Notes under the pieces: model-generated
What the model saw: the letters and a program-made list of their open reading frames with translations, nothing else
What the model was told of the DNA's origin: nothing
Database searches by the model: none
Part shown: positions 708 through 64,000 of the stretch, one piece after another
How positions within the stretch are numbered: the first letter of the stretch is position 1
Layout of the letters: each line of letters begins with the position of its first letter
Position numbers and translations under genes: made by a program
From: an uncultured bacterium
GTDB taxonomy: Bacteria; Patescibacteriota; Kazan-3B-28
Assembly (NCBI GenBank): GCA_963695435.1
Contig: OY968788.1
Span: 54,781 to 118,780 of the forward strand
Reading direction: 5' to 3'
DNA: 64,000 bases

Positions 708-1172
708 ATGTCTAATATGCTACACCAAAGATACATCACCGAAGTTTTGCGCTTGGCGCGTCTGGCTTTAGCAAAAAAGGAAGTTCCGATTGGGGCGATT
801 GTGGTTCATAAAAACGGAACAATTATTGGGCGAGGGTATAATCAAACACACGCCAAAAAAGATGGGCTGCAACACGCAGAACTAATAGCGATCAAGCAGG
901 CGCAGAAAAAAATCGGGGACTGGCGGCTTGATGGAACGAGTTTGTATGTGACGGTCGAGCCGTGTTTGATGTGTCTGGGTGCGGTTGGTAATGCTCGGAT
1001 GAAAGATGTTTATTATTTGTTAACCGATCCCTTGTTTGGTTCGGTAGAAAGTAAGCTATCCAAAGCACAGGTGAAAAAGATTTTCCCGAAATTGGGATGC
1101 CAGAAGCTAAAGGACGATGGTACTGTGGGGGGATTGATGAAAGGGTTTTTTCAGAGTTTGAGAAAGCGGTAA
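708..1172 (+). CDS. tadA: tRNA-specific adenosine deaminase TadA (CDA-fold zinc deaminase)
   Basis: HAELIAI...VEPCLMCLGA zinc-binding motifs are present. The start is placed at the ATG of MSNMLHQRY; the ORF track extends 27 codons further upstream. Confidence 0.85.
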   Translation: MSNMLHQRYITEVLRLARLALAKKEVPIGAIVVHKNGTIIGRGYNQTHAKKDGLQHAELIAIKQAQKKIGDWRLDGTSLYVTVEPCLMCLGAVGNARMKDVYYLLTDPLFGSVESKLSKAQVKKIFPKLGCQKLKDDGTVGGLMKGFFQSLRKR

Positions 1173-1486: not shown

Positions 1487-1825
1487 TTATCTTCCCAGAG
1501 CGAAGATAGCGTTAACTATCACATACGACAGAATGATAATGACAATACCGGTGATTGCGTTGACGATTTGTTTCTTTGCCAATTCGTCTGCTTTGGGGCC
1601 ACCGACAATGTATTGGATACCAGCGTAGACCAAGTATGCAACAGCGAGGACTCCAGCAATCAAAAGCATCCAGTCAATAATTGTGCCGATGAGGTCGACA
1701 AGGTCCTGAATACTAGTTCCTCCGGATTGGGGAACAGCGCCTGGAAGTTCTGCTGCCAAAACCGGACGAACCCACAAGGCGGCAGAGGCAGCTAACGCTG
1801 TTGCCGCGCGAAACCAATTTTTCAT
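1487..1825 (-). CDS. VirB2/TrbC-like (type IV secretion-type) pilin family membrane protein with a signal peptide
   Basis: The start MKNWFRAATALAASAALWVRPVLAAE is preceded by a GGAG ribosome-binding site. Two C-terminal transmembrane helices are present. It is a paralog of the downstream ORF. Confidence 0.6.
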   Translation of the reverse strand: MKNWFRAATALAASAALWVRPVLAAELPGAVPQSGGTSIQDLVDLIGTIIDWMLLIAGVLAVAYLVYAGIQYIVGGPKADELAKKQIVNAITGIVIIILSYVIVNAIFALGR

Positions 1826-46347: not shown

Positions 46348-46423
46348 GGGCCCGTAACTCAGTGGTTAGAGTAGTCCCCTCATAAGGGATTAGTCCTTGG
46401 TTCGAATCCAAGCGGGCCCACCA
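46348..46423 (+). tRNA. tRNA with CAT anticodon, probably tRNA-Ile2 (lysidine tRNA) or an elongator Met
   Basis: The acceptor stem gggcccg/cgggccc is fully paired. The anticodon loop is cuCAUaa. The D-arm resembles E. coli tRNA-Ile2. CCA is encoded. Confidence 0.75.
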
Positions 46424-46556
46424 CGGCGTCGAAATGGCTTCGCTCGACGCGCGAGCAAAACAGGTTTGCTCGGCTAATGAAGCTCAGCATTTCTCCTTTC
46501 AAAATTACAAACACTTCGTTGGTTTACAATTTTGGTTAGAGACAAAGACTTAGTAT
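46424..46556 (+). repeat. tRNA-trailer repeat element
   Basis: It begins cgtcgaaatggcttc as at 1284. It shares gctcggctaAtg and cagcatttctcctttc with that copy and carries the variant motif ttggtttacaattttggttag. Confidence 0.65.
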
Positions 46557-46565
46557 GTTTTCAAG

Positions 46566-46907
46566 ATGAAGAAGGCGATATCATATCTTTTTTATTTCAA
46601 AGCGCTGGTTTGGATAACTCTAGCGTTCTTTTATTTGAGTCGCCATCTTAGTCCTAATGAAAATGTGGTCTACCAAATTGTTGCTGGTTTACTGTTTGTG
46701 AATGGTTCTGCATACGCAGTTTTGGGATATCTTTTGAGACAAAAAGTTCGGTGGGTATTTTGGCTGTCGCTTGTTTTGGTGGCGGGAAATATTTTGCTGA
46801 CAATTACTGACCAAGTGGGCTGGGTGGATTGGATATCTTTGGCTACTGATTTGGTTCTGGTAGTTTTGTTGCTTTGGTACAGAAAGGAATGGATTCCATC
46901 AAAATAG
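46566..46907 (+). CDS. Hypothetical 113-aa membrane protein (3-4 transmembrane helices)
   Basis: It is an ORF with hydrophobic segments and lies between two convergent tRNA genes and their trailer repeats. Confidence 0.4.
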   Translation: MKKAISYLFYFKALVWITLAFFYLSRHLSPNENVVYQIVAGLLFVNGSAYAVLGYLLRQKVRWVFWLSLVLVAGNILLTITDQVGWVDWISLATDLVLVVLLLWYRKEWIPSK

Positions 46908-46914
46908 TGGCATC

Positions 46915-47042
46915 GTGCGCGGACTCAAACCAAAATCACAAACTAACGAAGTGTTTGTGATTTTGAAAGGAGAAATAACGAGACCCAAAAGCAACCCCGA
47001 GCCTGTCGAGGGCGTTAGCGTAAAGTCGAGTTTATTTCGACG
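46915..47042 (-). repeat. tRNA-trailer repeat element (minus strand, behind the initiator tRNA)
   Basis: The reverse complement reads atttctcctttcaaaatcacaaacacttcgttagtttgtgattttggtttgagtccgcgcacgatgccac. It forms an inverted repeat with 46480-46556. Confidence 0.65.
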
Positions 47043-47118
47043 TGGTTGCGGGGGTGAGATTCGAACTCACGACCTTCAGGTTATGAGCCTGACGAGCTAG
47101 CCACTGCTCTACCCCGCG
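47043..47118 (-). tRNA. Initiator tRNA-fMet (anticodon CAT)
   Basis: A C1xA72 mismatch is present (5' cgcgggg, 3' ccccgca + a + cca). The anticodon arm ucaggcuCAUaaccuga is E. coli tRNAfMet-like. Confidence 0.8.
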
Positions 47119-47152
47119 AGCCAATGTTAGCAATTCAGCTCATATCTGTCCA

Positions 47153-47217
47153 CCCCGTAGAAGAAATTTAATCGCGCTTTGCGCACCAGTCGAAGACATT
47201 AAATTTTCTCTACGGGG
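47153..47217. repeat. Conserved long palindromic hairpin (20-bp arms ccccgtagaagaaatttaat / attaaattttctctacgggg), copy 1
   Basis: The same arms, with a different loop, occur at 63603-63679. On the minus strand it immediately precedes a candidate promoter for the initiator tRNA (TGGACA, 17 nt, TAACAT). Confidence 0.6.
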
Positions 47218-47227
47218 TCCACCCCTA

Positions 47228-47653
47228 TCAAGCGACTTCGTGCAAACCGAGTATCAATCTCCACCATTTTTCGGGGTTGGTTGGTTCCTTTGGAACGGTT
47301 TTTGTTTGGTCTTGGATGTTACCTTCTGTAAATCTTTCAATGTCTTCGTTGGGAATTATCAGCACAGTTTCTCCAACTTTCTGGTAGTTCAGTTTTTCCC
47401 TTGCTTCCTTATCTTTGAAAGCATCTGTTTGGCGGTAGGCGATTAGATTTTGCAGATATTTGTTGTGTAATTTGAGGTCAGCGTTTTCCTGTCTTAGTTG
47501 AGTCAGCTCTTTATCTATTTGATAATTTTGCCAAATTGCTTGAATGGTTGAAACTACCATATATACCAAAAGGATTGCCCCCATGGTCATCAATAGTCTC
47601 GCACGCAATTCCTTGCCCTGCGGTAACTTAATTTTTCCTGATAGCTTGTTCAT
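47228..47653 (-). CDS. ftsB: FtsB/DivIC-like septum formation initiator (short N-terminus, one transmembrane segment, coiled coil)
   Basis: LRARLLMTMGAILLVYMVV is the transmembrane segment. A Q/L-rich coiled coil follows (LTQLRQENADLKL). The start is placed at MNKLSGK; the ORF track's TTG start would overlap the upstream tRNA. Confidence 0.6.
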   Translation of the reverse strand: MNKLSGKIKLPQGKELRARLLMTMGAILLVYMVVSTIQAIWQNYQIDKELTQLRQENADLKLHNKYLQNLIAYRQTDAFKDKEAREKLNYQKVGETVLIIPNEDIERFTEGNIQDQTKTVPKEPTNPEKWWRLILGLHEVA

Positions 47654-47658
47654 AGTTT

Positions 47659-47733
47659 TGGTGCCAGCGACAGGATTCGCACCTGTGACCAATGGCTTAT
47701 GAGTCCACTGCTCTACTGCTGAGCTACGCTGGC
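47659..47733 (-). tRNA. Elongator tRNA-Met (anticodon CAT)
   Basis: The acceptor stem is gccagcg/cgctggc. The anticodon loop is cuCAUaa. The variable loop and T-arm ggtcacaggtgcgaatcc are near-identical to E. coli elongator tRNA-Met. CCA is encoded. Confidence 0.8.
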
Positions 47734-47804: not shown

Positions 47805-48779
47805 ATGGAAAAGCAAGGTTTAGCTAACCTGGTTAGGGGGGAACTGACAAATGTCGGAATCAGACCGACAGATGTTTTGGTGGTGGCGGTATCGGGTGGA
47901 CCCGATTCGATGGTACTTCTCGATTTGCTTACCCAGATTTATCGTGGGTACGAGCAGAAACTAATTGTGGTGCATATCAATCACGGGTTACGCAAGACAG
48001 CGGACAGGGAAGAAAAATTGGTGGCGGATTATGCCAAGAAACACAAACTGCAGTTTGTTTCACGCAGGGTAAGTTTGGCTGGCAAAAAAACGGGTATTGA
48101 GGAACGGGCGCGGGAATTGAGATACTCTGCACTGCAGGAAATTGTTTCTCTTCACAAAGCGAGTTGGATTATTACTGCGCATACTGCGGATGATCAAGTA
48201 GAAACAGTAATTGCTAATTGGCTACGGGGAAGCGGAGTGCGAGGGCTTGGTGGGGTGCATTCGGTTGCCGGAAATATTGTTCGGCCAATGTTGAATATTC
48301 AGAAAGAGAAATTGCTGGACTATGCCAAAAAACATAAATTGCGGTATGCAATTGATGAAAGCAACGCCAGTTTGGAATTTACTCGCAATCGGATTCGTCA
48401 TCAGCTTCTGCCTATTTTACGAAAATATAATTCCCAGATTGATAATCAATTATTGAACAGCAGCCGAATTTGGCGGCAGGTTGATGAAGCATTGACGGAA
48501 CTGGCTAGGGTTTATTTGCGCCGAATCGGGAAGACGGCAAAGGGGCGAGTGGTGCTCTCAATTTCTAAATTGCGAGAACTGACGCCCTTGATGCAGGTTG
48601 AGGTGATGAAACTTGCGATTAGGACGATTGGGGGGAGTCTGGTGGACTTGGAGCAGACTCATTTTGGGGAAGTAGCGAAGCTGATGGCAAGTTCGAGGCA
48701 TCAGGTCAAAAAAAGGCGGTTGGGGGGCGGATTGTTCATCTCGAAGGCGTATGATAAGATTACGGTTAGTCAAAGCTAG
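47805..48779 (+). CDS. tilS: tRNA(Ile)-lysidine synthetase
   Basis: The PP-loop is VAVSGGPDSMVLL. The TilS N-type ATPase domain and a C-terminal substrate-binding domain are present. Confidence 0.85.
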   Translation: MEKQGLANLVRGELTNVGIRPTDVLVVAVSGGPDSMVLLDLLTQIYRGYEQKLIVVHINHGLRKTADREEKLVADYAKKHKLQFVSRRVSLAGKKTGIEERARELRYSALQEIVSLHKASWIITAHTADDQVETVIANWLRGSGVRGLGGVHSVAGNIVRPMLNIQKEKLLDYAKKHKLRYAIDESNASLEFTRNRIRHQLLPILRKYNSQIDNQLLNSSRIWRQVDEALTELARVYLRRIGKTAKGRVVLSISKLRELTPLMQVEVMKLAIRTIGGSLVDLEQTHFGEVAKLMASSRHQVKKRRLGGGLFISKAYDKITVSQS

Positions 48780-50691: not shown

Positions 50692-52281
50692 ATGTTTAGG
50701 AAGCTGATTACCCGCAAATCGAGTGTGTTGGAGGCAACGGCCGTGCTGGCAGTTGCTTCTTTAGTTAGTAGAATATTTGGTTTGCTTCGGGATAGAACTT
50801 TAGCAGCGCACTTTGGTGCGGGGAATGTGACAGATGCTTATTTTGCGGCGTTCAAGATTCCCGACCTCATTTTTAACTTATTGATATTGGGAGCGTTGTC
50901 ATCAGCGTTTATTCCTATTTTCACTGAATATTTACACAAAAACGGCGAAGATAAGGAAGAGGCGTGGAGCATTGTAAATTCGCTGGTGAATATCGGGATG
51001 GTTGCGTTGGCAGTGATATTGCTGGTGGCAGCGGTATTTGCGCCGATGTTGGCAAAAATTGTGGCACCGGGGTTTGATCCCGCGAAACAGGAATTGACCA
51101 TATCTTTGATGCGAGTGATGCTGCTCTCTCCGTTATTTTTTGGCATCAGTAATCTAGCGGGTGGGATTCTAAATTCTTTCCGCAACTTTTTGGCATATGC
51201 GGTGGCGCCGATTATGTATAACTTCGGGATTATTGCTGGTGTGCTTTGGCTGGTGCCGAGATTTGGCAATATCGGTTTGGCTTACGGTGTGGTTTTAGGT
51301 GCGTTTATGCATATGGCAATTCAGTTACCGGGAGTTTTTGCTCTCGGTTACAAATATCGTTTTCATTTCAACTGGAAACATCCTGCATTGAAAAAGATGG
51401 CACTATTGATGGCGCCAAGGACTTTGGGTATCGCGATATCTCAATTCAATGTGGTAATAAACACGATAATTGCTTCAACGCTTGCAGTAGGGAGTGTGGC
51501 GGTATTGAACTGGGCGGATAACTTACAGAGTTTGCCGATTGGTATTTTTGGAATATCTTTTGCGATAGCGGTGTTTCCTGTGTTGGCGGAAAAATATACA
51601 TTGCAAAAATTAGGAGAATTCAAAGATGACTTTACGCGGGTATTAAAACAGATTCTCTTTTTGATTATTCCAACCATGGTTTTGTACTGGCTTCTGCGCG
51701 CGCAAATTGTTCGACTTGTTTTGGGTGCAGGACATTTTGGGTGGGAAGATACTCGATTCACAATTTCCGTGTTAGCGTTTATGACTTTCGGGATGATTGC
51801 CCAAGCCACTATTCCACTTCTGGCGAGGTCATTTTACGCTCTGCAGGATACAAAAACTCCGCTTATTGCGGGCGTTGTGGCGTTGGTAGTAAATGTGGCG
51901 TCAGCAGTAATTCTGATTCCGCAACTGCAGGTGGTGGGGTTGGGAGCGGCGCTTTCTATTTCGGGACTGACCAATATGCTGGTGTTGGCAATTGTGTTGA
52001 ACCGTAAGTTGGCGGGGTTGCCGTGGAAACAAATCTTTGCCTCAATGGGCAAAATGATATTTGGCGCAGTGGCAATGGGAGGAGTGGGATATCTGATGTT
52101 GCGGGTGATGGATTTGATTATTAATACTAATCAATTTTTTGGTTTATTCGCTCAGACTATTGTGACTATAGTTGTAGCGCTCTTGTCGTATTTGGTAATA
52201 ACCAAGTGGTTGAAACTCGGTGAAGTAGAAATGATTATTAGTCCCGTCAAAACGCTCTGGCAAAAGGTGAGAAGGGGGTAG
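50692..52281 (+). CDS. murJ: Lipid II flippase MurJ (MviN family)
   Basis: There are 14 transmembrane segments. The N-terminus RIFGLLRDRTLAAHFGAGNVTDAYFAAFKIPD is a MurJ signature. Confidence 0.85.
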   Translation: MFRKLITRKSSVLEATAVLAVASLVSRIFGLLRDRTLAAHFGAGNVTDAYFAAFKIPDLIFNLLILGALSSAFIPIFTEYLHKNGEDKEEAWSIVNSLVNIGMVALAVILLVAAVFAPMLAKIVAPGFDPAKQELTISLMRVMLLSPLFFGISNLAGGILNSFRNFLAYAVAPIMYNFGIIAGVLWLVPRFGNIGLAYGVVLGAFMHMAIQLPGVFALGYKYRFHFNWKHPALKKMALLMAPRTLGIAISQFNVVINTIIASTLAVGSVAVLNWADNLQSLPIGIFGISFAIAVFPVLAEKYTLQKLGEFKDDFTRVLKQILFLIIPTMVLYWLLRAQIVRLVLGAGHFGWEDTRFTISVLAFMTFGMIAQATIPLLARSFYALQDTKTPLIAGVVALVVNVASAVILIPQLQVVGLGAALSISGLTNMLVLAIVLNRKLAGLPWKQIFASMGKMIFGAVAMGGVGYLMLRVMDLIINTNQFFGLFAQTIVTIVVALLSYLVITKWLKLGEVEMIISPVKTLWQKVRRG

Positions 52282-52283
52282 AG

Positions 52284-52396
52284 AAAGATCGACTTGCAGT
52301 CGATCTAATGTCCAATATCCAATGTCCAATGCGGTAACAATAAAGACAAGAATCGACTTGTGGTCGATTTAATTTCCAATTTCCAATCTCCGATTG
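52284..52396 (+). repeat. Two tandem copies of a roughly 48-bp unit: a palindrome atcgacttgYRgtcgat plus a TCCAAT-hexamer array
   Basis: The units are 52284-52334 and 52349-52396. TCCAAT occurs six times. Confidence 0.55.
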
Positions 52397-52594
52397 AGCA
52401 ATGGAAGAAGAAGAGTGAGGAATTTTTGGACAAACGAAAAGGGCTACCGAGTGGTAGCCCTGCGGAATTTAACCGCTACTATCCAGTAAGGAAGGGGGTC
52501 CTTACAAGAAGCAAAGGTTCAGAACTGACCATAGGGTCAGAGTTTCGCCAAACTTTGAAGTCTGGCTGAATAATAGAAAAGAAAAAAGGACAAA

Positions 52595-52683
52595 GTACCC
52601 GGCGAGACTCGAACCCGCTTCCTTCTGGATCCCTAAGTATCTGGGTGTAGCCAGACGCTCTAGCCCAATTGAGCTACGGGTAC
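52595..52683 (-). tRNA. Atypical tRNA-like gene with unresolved isotype. The acceptor, D and T arms are canonical, the anticodon-loop candidate is CUACACC and there is a 21-nt extra region. No CCA is encoded.
   Basis: The reverse complement is gtacccg-ta-gctc-aattgggcta-gagc-g-tctgg-ctacacc-ccaga-tacttagggatccagaaggaa-gcggg-ttcgagt-ctcgc-cgggtac. Confidence 0.45.
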
Positions 52684-52785
52684 AAACATAGTATCGATAT
52701 TATCAGAGCAATGGATTTGCGTCAAGATTTCTGCTCTGGGGACGGGTTTTTAGGGAGTAGAGGAGATTTCTGGTAAGATATCAGG

Positions 52786-54558
52786 GTGGATAAGATAAGA
52801 AATTTCTGTATTATTGCCCATATTGATCACGGGAAGTCGACTTTGGCTGACCGGCTTTTGGAATTGACCAATACGGTGTCTAAGCGGGAAATGAAGGCGC
52901 AGTATTTGGATACGATGGATTTGGAGCGGGAACGCGGAATCACTATTAAGCTTCAACCTGTGCGGATGCAGTACAAGGGATTCGAGTTGAATTTGATTGA
53001 TACTCCGGGGCATGTGGACTTTACTTACGAAGTGTCCCGTTCACTTGCGGCTGTTGAAGGAGCTTTGTTGGTGGTGGATGCGTCTCAGGGAATTGAAGCG
53101 CAGACTTTGGCGAACTTGCAATTGGCTTTGGTACACAATCTGAAAATTATTCCGGTTATTAACAAAATCGATTTGCCGGCGGCGGATGCGGATAGAGTCA
53201 TTAAAGAAATGCAGTCGGTTATTGGGATTGAGCCAGAGGATGTGATTTTGGTATCAGCAAAAACTGGCGAAGGGGTAGATAAAATTTTGGATGCTATCGT
53301 GGAACGAATTCCTGCACCAAGAGGAAATGAAGATGCGCCTTTGCGCGCATTGGTGTTTGATTCTTATTTTGACCAGTTTCGCGGAGTGGTTGCGTATGTG
53401 CGGGTGTTGGACGGAAAAGTTTCTGTCGGCGACCAAATTATGATGATGGCAAGTCGTGCAGAAGCAGAAGCGATGGAAGTGGGATTTTTTGCACCGAAGC
53501 TCACAAAAAAACAAATTTTAGAAAATAGTGAGATTGGTTATATTGCAACTGGCCTGAAGGATGTTCGGGCGGTGCGAGTGGGAGATACGGTGACTCTGGC
53601 AAAAAATGTGAATGAAGTAAAAGCTTTGGAAGGATATAAGAAAGTAATGCCTTTTGTGTATGCGGGTATCTTCACTGTAGATAATGCAGATTTCCCACAA
53701 CTAAGAGAGGCACTGGATAAACTGCAGTTGAATGACTCAGCACTGGTTTTTGAGCCGGAAAGCTCACCTGCTCTAGGATTTGGCTTCCGATGCGGATTTT
53801 TAGGTCTATTACATTTGGATATTGTGCAGGAAAGATTGGAGCGGGAGTTCAATCTGAATTTAGTCACAACAACACCGAGTGTTAGTTACAAAGTGATAAT
53901 GGCGAACAATGAAGAAAAAATTATTCACAATCCGACAGAACTTCCCGAAGCGGGAACATACAAAGAAATTGCGGAACCTTGGATTCGGTTGGAAATTGTC
54001 AGTCCTGCGGAATATGTTGGAAGTGTAATGCAATTAGTGCAGGGGAGGCACGGTGTTCAGGTTGATGTGAAGTATTTGGATCCGACTCGCGCAGTTTTGA
54101 TTTATGAGATTCCACTCTCTGGAGTAATTACCGAATTTTATGATCAACTGAAAAGCGCAACATCAGGATACGCATCGATGTCGTATGAATTGTTGGAATA
54201 TAGAGTTGGGAAACTGGTAAGAGTGGATGTGTTGCTGAATACTAAGCCGGTGGATACATTATCGGTGATTGTGCATCGGGATGAGGCGAATAAAATCGGA
54301 CAGCAAATTACAGCGAAGTTGAAGAAGCTTTTGCCAAAACAGAATTTCAAAATTGTAATTCAAGCGGCGATTGGCGGGAAGGTAATTGCGCGTGAGGAAC
54401 TTTCGCCATATCGCAAAGATGTTTTGGCAAAACTATACGGCGGAGATAGAACGCGGAAAGACAAACTTTTGGAGAAACAAAAGAAGGGGAAAAAGCGAAT
54501 GAAGATGGTGGGGAGTGTGGAAATTCCGCAAGAAGCATTCATGAAGCTACTTTCATAG
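52786..54558 (+). CDS. lepA: Elongation factor 4 (LepA)
   Basis: FCIIAHIDHGKSTLADRLL is the G1 motif. The DTPGHVDF motif is present. The LepA-specific C-terminal domain is present. Confidence 0.9.
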   Translation: MDKIRNFCIIAHIDHGKSTLADRLLELTNTVSKREMKAQYLDTMDLERERGITIKLQPVRMQYKGFELNLIDTPGHVDFTYEVSRSLAAVEGALLVVDASQGIEAQTLANLQLALVHNLKIIPVINKIDLPAADADRVIKEMQSVIGIEPEDVILVSAKTGEGVDKILDAIVERIPAPRGNEDAPLRALVFDSYFDQFRGVVAYVRVLDGKVSVGDQIMMMASRAEAEAMEVGFFAPKLTKKQILENSEIGYIATGLKDVRAVRVGDTVTLAKNVNEVKALEGYKKVMPFVYAGIFTVDNADFPQLREALDKLQLNDSALVFEPESSPALGFGFRCGFLGLLHLDIVQERLEREFNLNLVTTTPSVSYKVIMANNEEKIIHNPTELPEAGTYKEIAEPWIRLEIVSPAEYVGSVMQLVQGRHGVQVDVKYLDPTRAVLIYEIPLSGVITEFYDQLKSATSGYASMSYELLEYRVGKLVRVDVLLNTKPVDTLSVIVHRDEANKIGQQITAKLKKLLPKQNFKIVIQAAIGGKVIAREELSPYRKDVLAKLYGGDRTRKDKLLEKQKKGKKRMKMVGSVEIPQEAFMKLLS

Positions 54559-63708: not shown

Positions 63709-63910
63709 ACTCACTAGAGTTGCATTAATTTTAAAGCTAGGTCGAGGCTATAAAAGCTAAAGGGATTCCGGTTGCCGGAGTCTATCTTTTATTTACCCCT
63801 CCTAGGGCTTTGAGGCAGCTCCTAATCAGTACTTTTACAACCAGAGAGTACTTAGAGAGCAAATAGTGAATTCAAGAATAAAATTCCAGAAGTGGAATAA
63901 AAATATACTT

Positions 63911-64000
63911 TTTTGAGAGTTTGATCCTAGCTCAGGATTAACGCTGGCGGCATGCCTAACACATGCAAGTCGAATGGCCCGCAAGGGTACCATGGCGAAC
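63911..64000 (+). rRNA. rrs: 16S ribosomal RNA, 5' end (partial; continues beyond the window)
   Basis: The sequence tttgagagtttgatcctagctcaggattaacgctggcggcatgcctaacacatgcaagtcgaa matches the universal 16S 5' region (the 27F primer site). Confidence 0.9.

Follow-up and report, generated by a model that had tools for sequence, protein, structure and literature searches.

Anticodon arm of the tRNA-like gene

What does a tRNA gene encode when its anticodon cannot be read? This question is raised by a 90-nt element on the minus strand at 52594-52683 (the discriminator U at 52594 included) of the window, by which we mean the whole 64-kb stretch of DNA that was analysed. When the whole window was searched against Rfam, the element matched the tRNA family RF00005 at 51.3 bits (gathering score 29, E = 4.3e-8). 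A tRNA-like gene had been placed here in the first-pass annotation, and it is genuine, well beyond chance. ARAGORN called the same 52594-52683 interval as 'tRNA-???' with a 2-base 'anticodon' (ac). None of the tools that were run assigned an isotype, which bears out the earlier description of the anticodon region as uninterpretable.

Read from 52683 to 52594, the minus strand is GUACCCG-UA-GCUC-AAUUGGGCUA-GAGC-G-UCUGG-CUACACCCAGAUACUUAGGGAU-CCAGA-AGGAA-GCGGG-UUCGAGU-CUCGC-CGGGUAC-U. The acceptor (7 bp), D (4 bp) and T (5 bp, one G.U) stems are free of mismatches, 21 of 21 pairs form, and the four arms follow the 7/4/5/5-bp stem pattern of a canonical tRNA. The T loop contains UUCGA. When the anticodon stem is closed by the second of two CCAGA copies, the tertiary residues U8, A14, G18G19, A21, G26.A44, G46, G53-C61, T54-Psi55-C56 and A58 are also present, and the acceptor, D and T arms are as textbook as had been claimed. 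Position 15/48 is A/A, which is non-standard. The gene does not encode CCA, the discriminator U being followed by UUG, and CCA is encoded by 9 of the 9 other tRNA genes of the window.

A canonical 7-nt anticodon loop with U33 and a purine at position 37 is not found; the loop is either 6 or 22 nt. CCAGA occurs twice as a 5-nt direct repeat, the copies being 16 nt apart. The 5' strand of the anticodon stem, UCUGG (52655-52651, minus strand), is separated by 22 nt (CUACACCCAGAUACUUAGGGAU; 52629-52650, minus strand, from the Rfam and orthologue alignments) from the second CCAGA copy (52624-52628, minus strand), with which it pairs in the Rfam covariance model. The first copy (52640-52644, minus strand) can also pair with UCUGG, as judged from the sequence and the ARAGORN structure.

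In the reading chosen by ARAGORN, the first CCAGA leaves a 6-nt loop, CUACAC, and a 21-nt 'variable' region. The 2-base 'anticodon' is printed because this copy closes a 6-nt loop. In the reading of the covariance model, the loop is 22 nt (7 plus 15 inserted) and the variable loop is an ordinary 5-nt AGGAA; the arm is then about double the usual length and ends in a loop of 9 nt. The two readings are isoenergetic (-29.6 vs -29.5 kcal/mol). The UCUGG/CCAGA stem proposed at first can pair, but the loop that it closes is CUACAC, 6 nt, and not CUACACC. The pyrimidine noted at position 37 holds in that first-CCAGA reading. So do the 21 extra nucleotides with GGATCC (UACUUAGGGAUCCAGAAGGAA), which do not exist as such when the second CCAGA is used.

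Orthologues, the insertion and maintenance of the stems

Along the window, the gene follows tilS-ftsH and murJ (50692-52281, plus strand) and precedes lepA (52786-54558, plus strand) and hrcA-grpE-dnaK, with murJ and lepA on either side of it. The murJ-lepA interval was compared in genomes whose LepA is 80-97.5% identical to that of the window, and the nearest LepA relatives are uncultured Patescibacteria/CPR genomes around 'candidate division Kazan'. One locus, L092, was added from a metagenome scan with a promoter-plus-tRNA pattern. It was the only true relative among the 10 matches of that scan; the others were unrelated tRNA-Gly or other loci, or coding DNA.

In the sister of the window genome (L081/L082), the tRNA-like gene has the loop CUGAUUU and a C2.A71 mismatch. 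LepA of L081 is 97.5% identical to that of the window, with 64% identity at four-fold degenerate sites. The LepA call is 666 aa in L081/L082, with a 36-codon N-terminal extension (4001-4108 in L081). The 97.5% identity was obtained after trimming to the conserved GTG/VDKIRNF start, and the 91% given by the protein search understates relatedness. The anticodon loop is CAGAUUA (A33, U37) in L001/L083 and CCAACUA (C33, U37) in L084. L085/L088 have a canonical Arg loop, CUACGGA, and a U6.U67 mismatch, and L092 has two genes in tandem, one with the loop CAGAUAA (A33) and then one with the canonical Lys loop CUCUUAA. Among the orthologue loops of L081, L001, the first gene of L092, L084 and L085, that of L085 is the sole canonical one. 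None of the orthologous genes encodes CCA, none contains the 15-16 extra nucleotides, and the variable loops are all 4-5 nt. With five syntenic orthologues that have a 7-nt anticodon loop and a short variable loop, the earlier suggestion of a tRNA carrying a short insertion agrees well, and the insertion is specific to the lineage of the window.

The insert was placed at 52634-52648 when the gene was aligned to its orthologues with MAFFT. On sequence grounds, the CCAGA repeat allows two equivalent descriptions of the event: 15 nt added within the loop, or 16 nt inserted or duplicated where the 3' strand of the anticodon stem meets the variable loop. The inserted sequence has no second copy in the window (with up to 3 mismatches) or in 101 loci, and is therefore neither a repeated element nor a miniature mobile one. 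Attempts to derive it from the adjoining sequence by tandem duplication, or from the loop of an orthologue, yielded only ambiguous partial matches. CAGAUA in the insert resembles the L092 and L001 loops CAGAUAA and CAGAUUA, CUAC...GGA resembles the Arg loop, and CUUA resembles the Lys loop.

Across six syntenic orthologues, the window included, 98.4% of stem cells are in standard pairs, and two-sided compensatory change is seen in 13 of the 21 pairs. The covariation score is 0.57 as compared to 0.27 in shuffles, with 0 of 500 shuffles reaching 0.57, and pairing dropped to 33-46% in controls in which the partners were slid. Covariation among tRNA-derived sequences could in part reflect different parental tRNAs. 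In the anticodon loop, C32 is the sole position that is constant among the orthologues. The discriminator (U, A, G) and the acceptor stem vary as well.

Changes outside the loop were polarised between the window and L081 with L001 as outgroup. The window lineage has 12 private substitutions and L081 has 4, a rate about three times faster. Two compensatory pairs arose in the window lineage, 3-70 from G-C to A-U and 51-63 from A-U to G-C; a C2.A71 mismatch, as in L081, became U2-A71, and one G-C became G.U. No pair was broken by any of the 12 changes. These patterns suggest a fast-evolving sequence whose cloverleaf is nevertheless policed, and they do not resemble passive decay of a pseudogene. 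The view that this is a decaying tRNA thus keeps one of its parts, in that the anticodon region is free of decoding constraint, but it does not account for four stems kept by compensatory substitutions, the window lineage included. It is important to note that maintenance by selection is seen over the lineage as a whole, and that the insertion could be very recent.

Promoter, trailer and cargo of the murJ-lepA interval

A promoter scan placed a conserved block, AGAGCAGAAATC, upstream of the gene, followed by a -35 element TTGACG (52725-52720), a 17-nt spacer and a TG-extended -10 element TAATAT ending at 52697 (52697-52737 in all, minus strand). The promoter is of the sigma-70 type, with G1 of the tRNA-like gene 13 nt downstream of the -10 element, and an rpoD gene is present within the window. 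A block of the form AGAGCnnnWAWnTTGACR-17-TAnnAT precedes the cargo in L001 and in L081-L092, and it is always directed at murJ.

On the other side of the gene is a trailer of about 160 nt (52431-52593, minus strand), defined by its conservation with L001 and L081 and by a terminator scan. Its parts are, in order, a U-rich tract, a covarying hairpin, an invariant CUGACC-nnAn-GGUCAG hairpin, a variable hairpin, an invariant GCGGUUAAAUUCCGC hairpin and an intrinsic, covarying terminator (52461-52440 plus UUUUCGUUUG). The trailer is conserved in three genomes only (the window, L001 and L081) and is different in L084. A plus-strand ORF of 69 aa (52360-52569) was rejected as the cause of this conservation: the indels are 7 and 9 nt, and the trailer is non-coding because they are not all multiples of 3. 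No Rfam family matched the trailer. At the E-value threshold, the gene, the trailer and the closest loci gave no SRP, 6S, tmRNA, riboswitch or intron match, and the same search yielded only tRNA and a generic terminator-like ctRNA match. The trailer may be a novel small RNA. Scans of viral contigs for the trailer motif, for a CAGAUWA-type tRNA pattern and for the 200-aa ORF found downstream in some relatives returned nothing, so no phage link is drawn. Just past the murJ stop, two short arrays of a 7-nt repeat, nTCCAAT (52303-52331 and 52371-52395, 3.6-4 copies each), flank a small hairpin (52351-52369). The repeat is enriched in the window, with 7 matches as compared to 0.8 expected, and the arrays were not seen in the L001 or L081 sequence read beside the trailer.

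Several relatives have other cargo behind the promoter. L091 has an 83-nt four-way junction in which the tRNA likeness is gone (858-940, minus strand), and L090 has a long hairpin that is not tRNA-shaped (about 1640-1715, minus strand). Both keep an acceptor-like terminal stem (GCGUAUA/UAUGCGC in L091, ...UCCG/CGGA...GCA in L090). In L086, L087 and L089 the interval contains a small ORF and then a CCA-less tRNA-Thr(AGU), and in L002 and L004 the tRNA-like gene is missing. The gene is dispensable, since it has been lost or has degenerated in close relatives.

The leaders behind the promoter in L091 and L090 are structured, with z-scores of -4.5 for the four-way junction and -4.3 for the hairpin, and these two elements may be snapshots of a tRNA gene becoming another structured leader. 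A gene for a protein of about 200 aa without known function follows downstream in L091, L085 and L092; two members were scanned and neither had a Pfam match. The downstream gene in L090 is an unrelated ORF of 164 aa. No remnants of the relatives' downstream ORFs were detected by tblastn in the window, L001, L081 or L084. From these comparisons the murJ-lepA interval behaves as a variable slot with a fixed promoter, occupied by one tRNA-like gene or by two tRNAs in tandem, by a structured leader that is not a tRNA, or by a small ORF from either of two unrelated families. The conserved feature is the stable structure after the promoter and not the anticodon, given that L091 and L090 have highly structured non-tRNA leaders behind the same promoter.

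The tRNA-like genes also differ in their closest tRNA. Outside the loop, those of L084 and L085 share 83% identity with the resident tRNA-Arg(ACG), and the entire acceptor stem and discriminator are common to L084 and the resident gene. For the window copy the best match is the Lys(CUU) gene of L092 (80%), ahead of L081 and the first gene of L092 (74%). Such differing parental likenesses would point to replacement, or to differential loss from an ancestral array, and not to evolution in place. No mobile-element or phage signal was found for the tRNA-like gene. Because of the tandem pair in L092, the simplest history is one in which the clade ancestor had a small cluster of CCA-less accessory tRNAs behind the promoter, members of the cluster were lost differentially by lineage, and the anticodon loops then drifted.

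Decoding, competing explanations and known systems

Judged from its sequence, the tRNA-like gene is almost certainly not a working decoder, because a 6-nt loop cannot present a triplet and the alternative is an arm of roughly doubled length. Nor is there a conserved anticodon to restore, since the loops are non-canonical even in orthologues that lack the insert. A canonical tRNA-Arg(ACG) with CCA is encoded at 213-289, adjoining a TadA-like deaminase gene, and the organism must read AUY, CGN and other codons via other tRNAs.

With respect to processing, bacterial RNase Z cuts directly after the discriminator and prefers CCA-less precursors, and it is strongly inhibited by an encoded CCA or by a C after the discriminator (PMC7479834). 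That no member of the family encodes CCA, and that the trailers start with U, suggests an RNase Z processing route. Pfam scans of about 50 ORFs of the 64-kb window, which is part of a contig of roughly 560 kb, found no gene for RNase Z or a CCA-adding enzyme, and no splicing endonuclease or ligase.

The explanation that we favour, by a modest degree, is a supernumerary tRNA-derived RNA that no longer decodes and is kept for its tRNA shape. The conserved sigma-70-type promoter would drive a short minus-strand unit made up of the tRNA-like 5' module, the structured trailer of about 160 nt and the terminator. The transcript is predicted to fold to a normal L-shape, all of the tertiary-interaction residues being present. 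It would probably be excised in the manner of a tRNA, with an RNase P cut at G1 and an endonucleolytic cut after the discriminator, the latter predicted because CCA is not encoded and the trailer starts with U. The anticodon arm would be without decoding constraint, and in the window genome it has gained a 15-16-nt insertion, flanked by the CCAGA repeat, that either doubles the length of the arm or reduces the loop to 6 nt. Recognition of the module by RNase P and RNase Z, or by other tRNA-binding factors, may punctuate or stabilise the transcript. Both the co-transcription with the trailer and the tRNA-type processing are predicted from motifs, and we infer a processing or stabilising module rather than an adaptor. 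Put as a statement on CPR bacteria, a shape-only tRNA module with an unconstrained anticodon arm would be kept to stabilise a downstream RNA or to punctuate it for RNase P/Z; this is essentially the favoured explanation, and in that form it is less likely than not.

A plain pseudogene, that is, a redundant accessory tRNA recently knocked out by a slippage- or duplication-type insertion of 16 nt and now functionless, is a rather unlikely explanation but the main rival. A CCAGA direct repeat around extra bases is typical of duplication or insertion mutation, the window lineage changes about three times faster than L081, the orthologues in L081 and L085 have single acceptor mismatches, and the gene is dispensable, as seen from the loss of tRNA shape in L090 and L091 and its absence from L002 and L004. 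However, 21 of 21 stem pairs are intact in the window despite the 12 private substitutions, 5 of which make up two compensatory pairs and one mismatch repair, and neutral decay at 64% four-fold identity to the sister should have yielded mismatches. The promoter, the tertiary residues of the D and T loops and the terminator are likewise intact. A conserved body with anticodon loops that are hypervariable among close relatives would also be expected of a tRNA mimic that acts as a regulator or decoy. It might titrate a tRNA-binding protein, for example an aminoacyl-tRNA synthetase, TadA or an anticodon nuclease, or work as a small regulatory RNA, and its functional end would then be the rapidly changing anticodon arm. 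There is precedent in a pseudo-tRNA that works outside translation and influences cell-wall and antibiotic phenotypes (PMC3399842), and the locus adjoins murJ. We consider a mimic improbable, as no conserved partner gene is adjacent, the cargo behind the promoter differs between clades, and the variable acceptor stem and discriminator do not keep a single synthetase identity.

The remaining explanations retain a decoding tRNA, and the first, a 15-nt mini-intron of a new kind whose removal, by a pathway without a ribozyme, would restore a 7-nt loop, is very improbable. Deleting 15 nt can give the loops CUGGGAU, CUAGGAU, CUACGAU and CUACAAU, which have U33 and A37 and would read as CU-ACG-AU (Arg), CU-GGG-AU or CU-AGG-AU (Pro) or CU-ACA-AU. 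The split CUAC...GGA moreover resembles the Arg loop CUACGGA. Proline tRNAs want G37, and arginine tRNAs want A20 and A or G at 73; A37 misfits Pro, and U73 and the absent A20 misfit Arg. tRNA introns are exceptionally common in Patescibacteria, and some interrupt the gene at 35/36, an unusual position (PMC13011429). Against this, 15 nt falls far below the size of a group I or II ribozyme, no Rfam intron matched at either the gathering or the E-value threshold, and folds within 3 kcal/mol contain no bulge-helix-bulge or relaxed hBH motif. The intron-aware ARAGORN runs that had been proposed as a check (-i, -i0,40, -ps90) again returned 'tRNA-?(Val|Cys)(ac)', with no normal isotype and no intron solution. 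Removal at 37/38 would leave C37, not a purine, and with A33, C33 or U37 in the insert-free orthologues splicing would restore no conserved anticodon. The Arg(ACG) that such a tRNA could supply is already encoded, with CCA, at 213-289, whereas the candidate itself lacks CCA. Least credible is the class II-like tRNA suggested at first, in which a UCUGG-CUACAC-CCAGA hairpin and a 21-nt variable arm are used as such. ARAGORN prefers this structure, which becomes the constrained minimum free-energy fold (-31.2 kcal/mol) once a G26-U pair is added. It is excluded by homology with the insert-free orthologues, as all of these have variable loops of 4-5 nt and none has a long variable arm. As drawn by ARAGORN, the putative arm has only 5 of 8 Watson-Crick pairs, the 6-nt loop cannot present a triplet, and the 'anticodon' matches none of Leu, Ser and Tyr. 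The usual residues A44, G45 and G46 are kept only when the second CCAGA is used, and position 48 is A.

A tRNA-derived RNA kept for its shape has counterparts among known systems. tRNA-like processing modules or by-product RNAs include mascRNA/MALAT1, 3'ETS-leuZ and mitochondrial tRNA punctuation. As in these, a tRNA shape is here joined to another RNA in one predicted transcript, and in mascRNA-type modules only the shape recognised by RNase P/Z needs conserving. Unlike in those modules, the joined RNA differs between clades, and cleavage is predicted from motifs alone. Accessory tRNA genes and arrays are extra to the housekeeping set, as this gene probably is, have their own promoter and include aberrant or pseudogene members, as in the Anabaena trn operon (PMC8421152). 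The tandem genes of L092, and the relation of L084 and L085 to the housekeeping tRNA-Arg(ACG) as paralogues, fit this pattern. Such arrays have tens of genes, whereas one or two are found here, with no mobile-element or phage context, with mostly non-canonical loops and with covarying stems at a fixed chromosomal locus.

The tRNA-Other of B. cereus is chromosomal, non-translational and dispensable and has been proposed to be recruited to another role (PMC3399842). The gene described here is likewise a chromosomal, dispensable tRNA-like gene that is predicted not to decode. In tRNA-Other, which borders a genomic island, the loop is still 7 nt long and carries a Trp anticodon (PMC3399842), unlike in the present gene with its disrupted loop, lack of CCA and conserved structured trailer. 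In the same phylum, tRNA group I introns of Patescibacteria are self-splicing, match RF00028, start after a U, end at a G and restore a conserved anticodon (PMC13011429). Here too the interruption is inside the anticodon loop, which is why standard tools fail to assign an isotype, but the insert is only 15-16 nt, with no ribozyme and no RF00028 match.

Pseudo-tRNAs, accessory tRNAs and tRNA-like RNAs are thus kinds already known, and this gene is a variant among them. The description that fits best is of a tRNA-like gene conserved in structure, probably supernumerary and non-decoding, with an insertion specific to its lineage, which is moderately unusual. If the favoured explanation is true, CPR bacteria with tiny genomes retain an RNA of tRNA shape that stands outside the genetic code; compensatory evolution polices its stems, and the anticodon loop mutates freely and even tolerates a 15-nt insertion. 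It would be a clean natural example of selection for tRNA shape alone, the selected property probably being recognition by RNase P/Z or other tRNA-binding factors. It also serves as a warning for annotation, since 'undetermined' tRNAs of Patescibacteria are not all intron-containing genes. No major concept is changed unless the insert proves to be spliced, in which case a 15-nt bacterial tRNA intron would make the feature remarkable.

Other tRNA genes of the window and its relatives provided further observations. The TadA-like deaminase gene (627-1172; MafB19-deam/dCMP_cyt_deam_1) lies inside a tRNA cluster at 213-1283 that contains Arg(ACG) at 213-289, Ser(GCU) at 436-525 and Ser(CGA) at 1192-1283, and the enzyme is therefore encoded beside its expected substrate. 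Other A34 anticodons are found on CCA-less tRNAs of relatives, namely AGU in L086 and an AAC-like loop in L084. Three tRNA(CAU) genes are present within 1.4 kb (46348-47733), adjoining tilS (47805-48779), and in the one at 47659-47733 the T-loop is UGCGAAU, in which position 55, normally invariant, is G. At 63909-64000 the 5' end of a bacterial 16S rRNA gene runs off the window.
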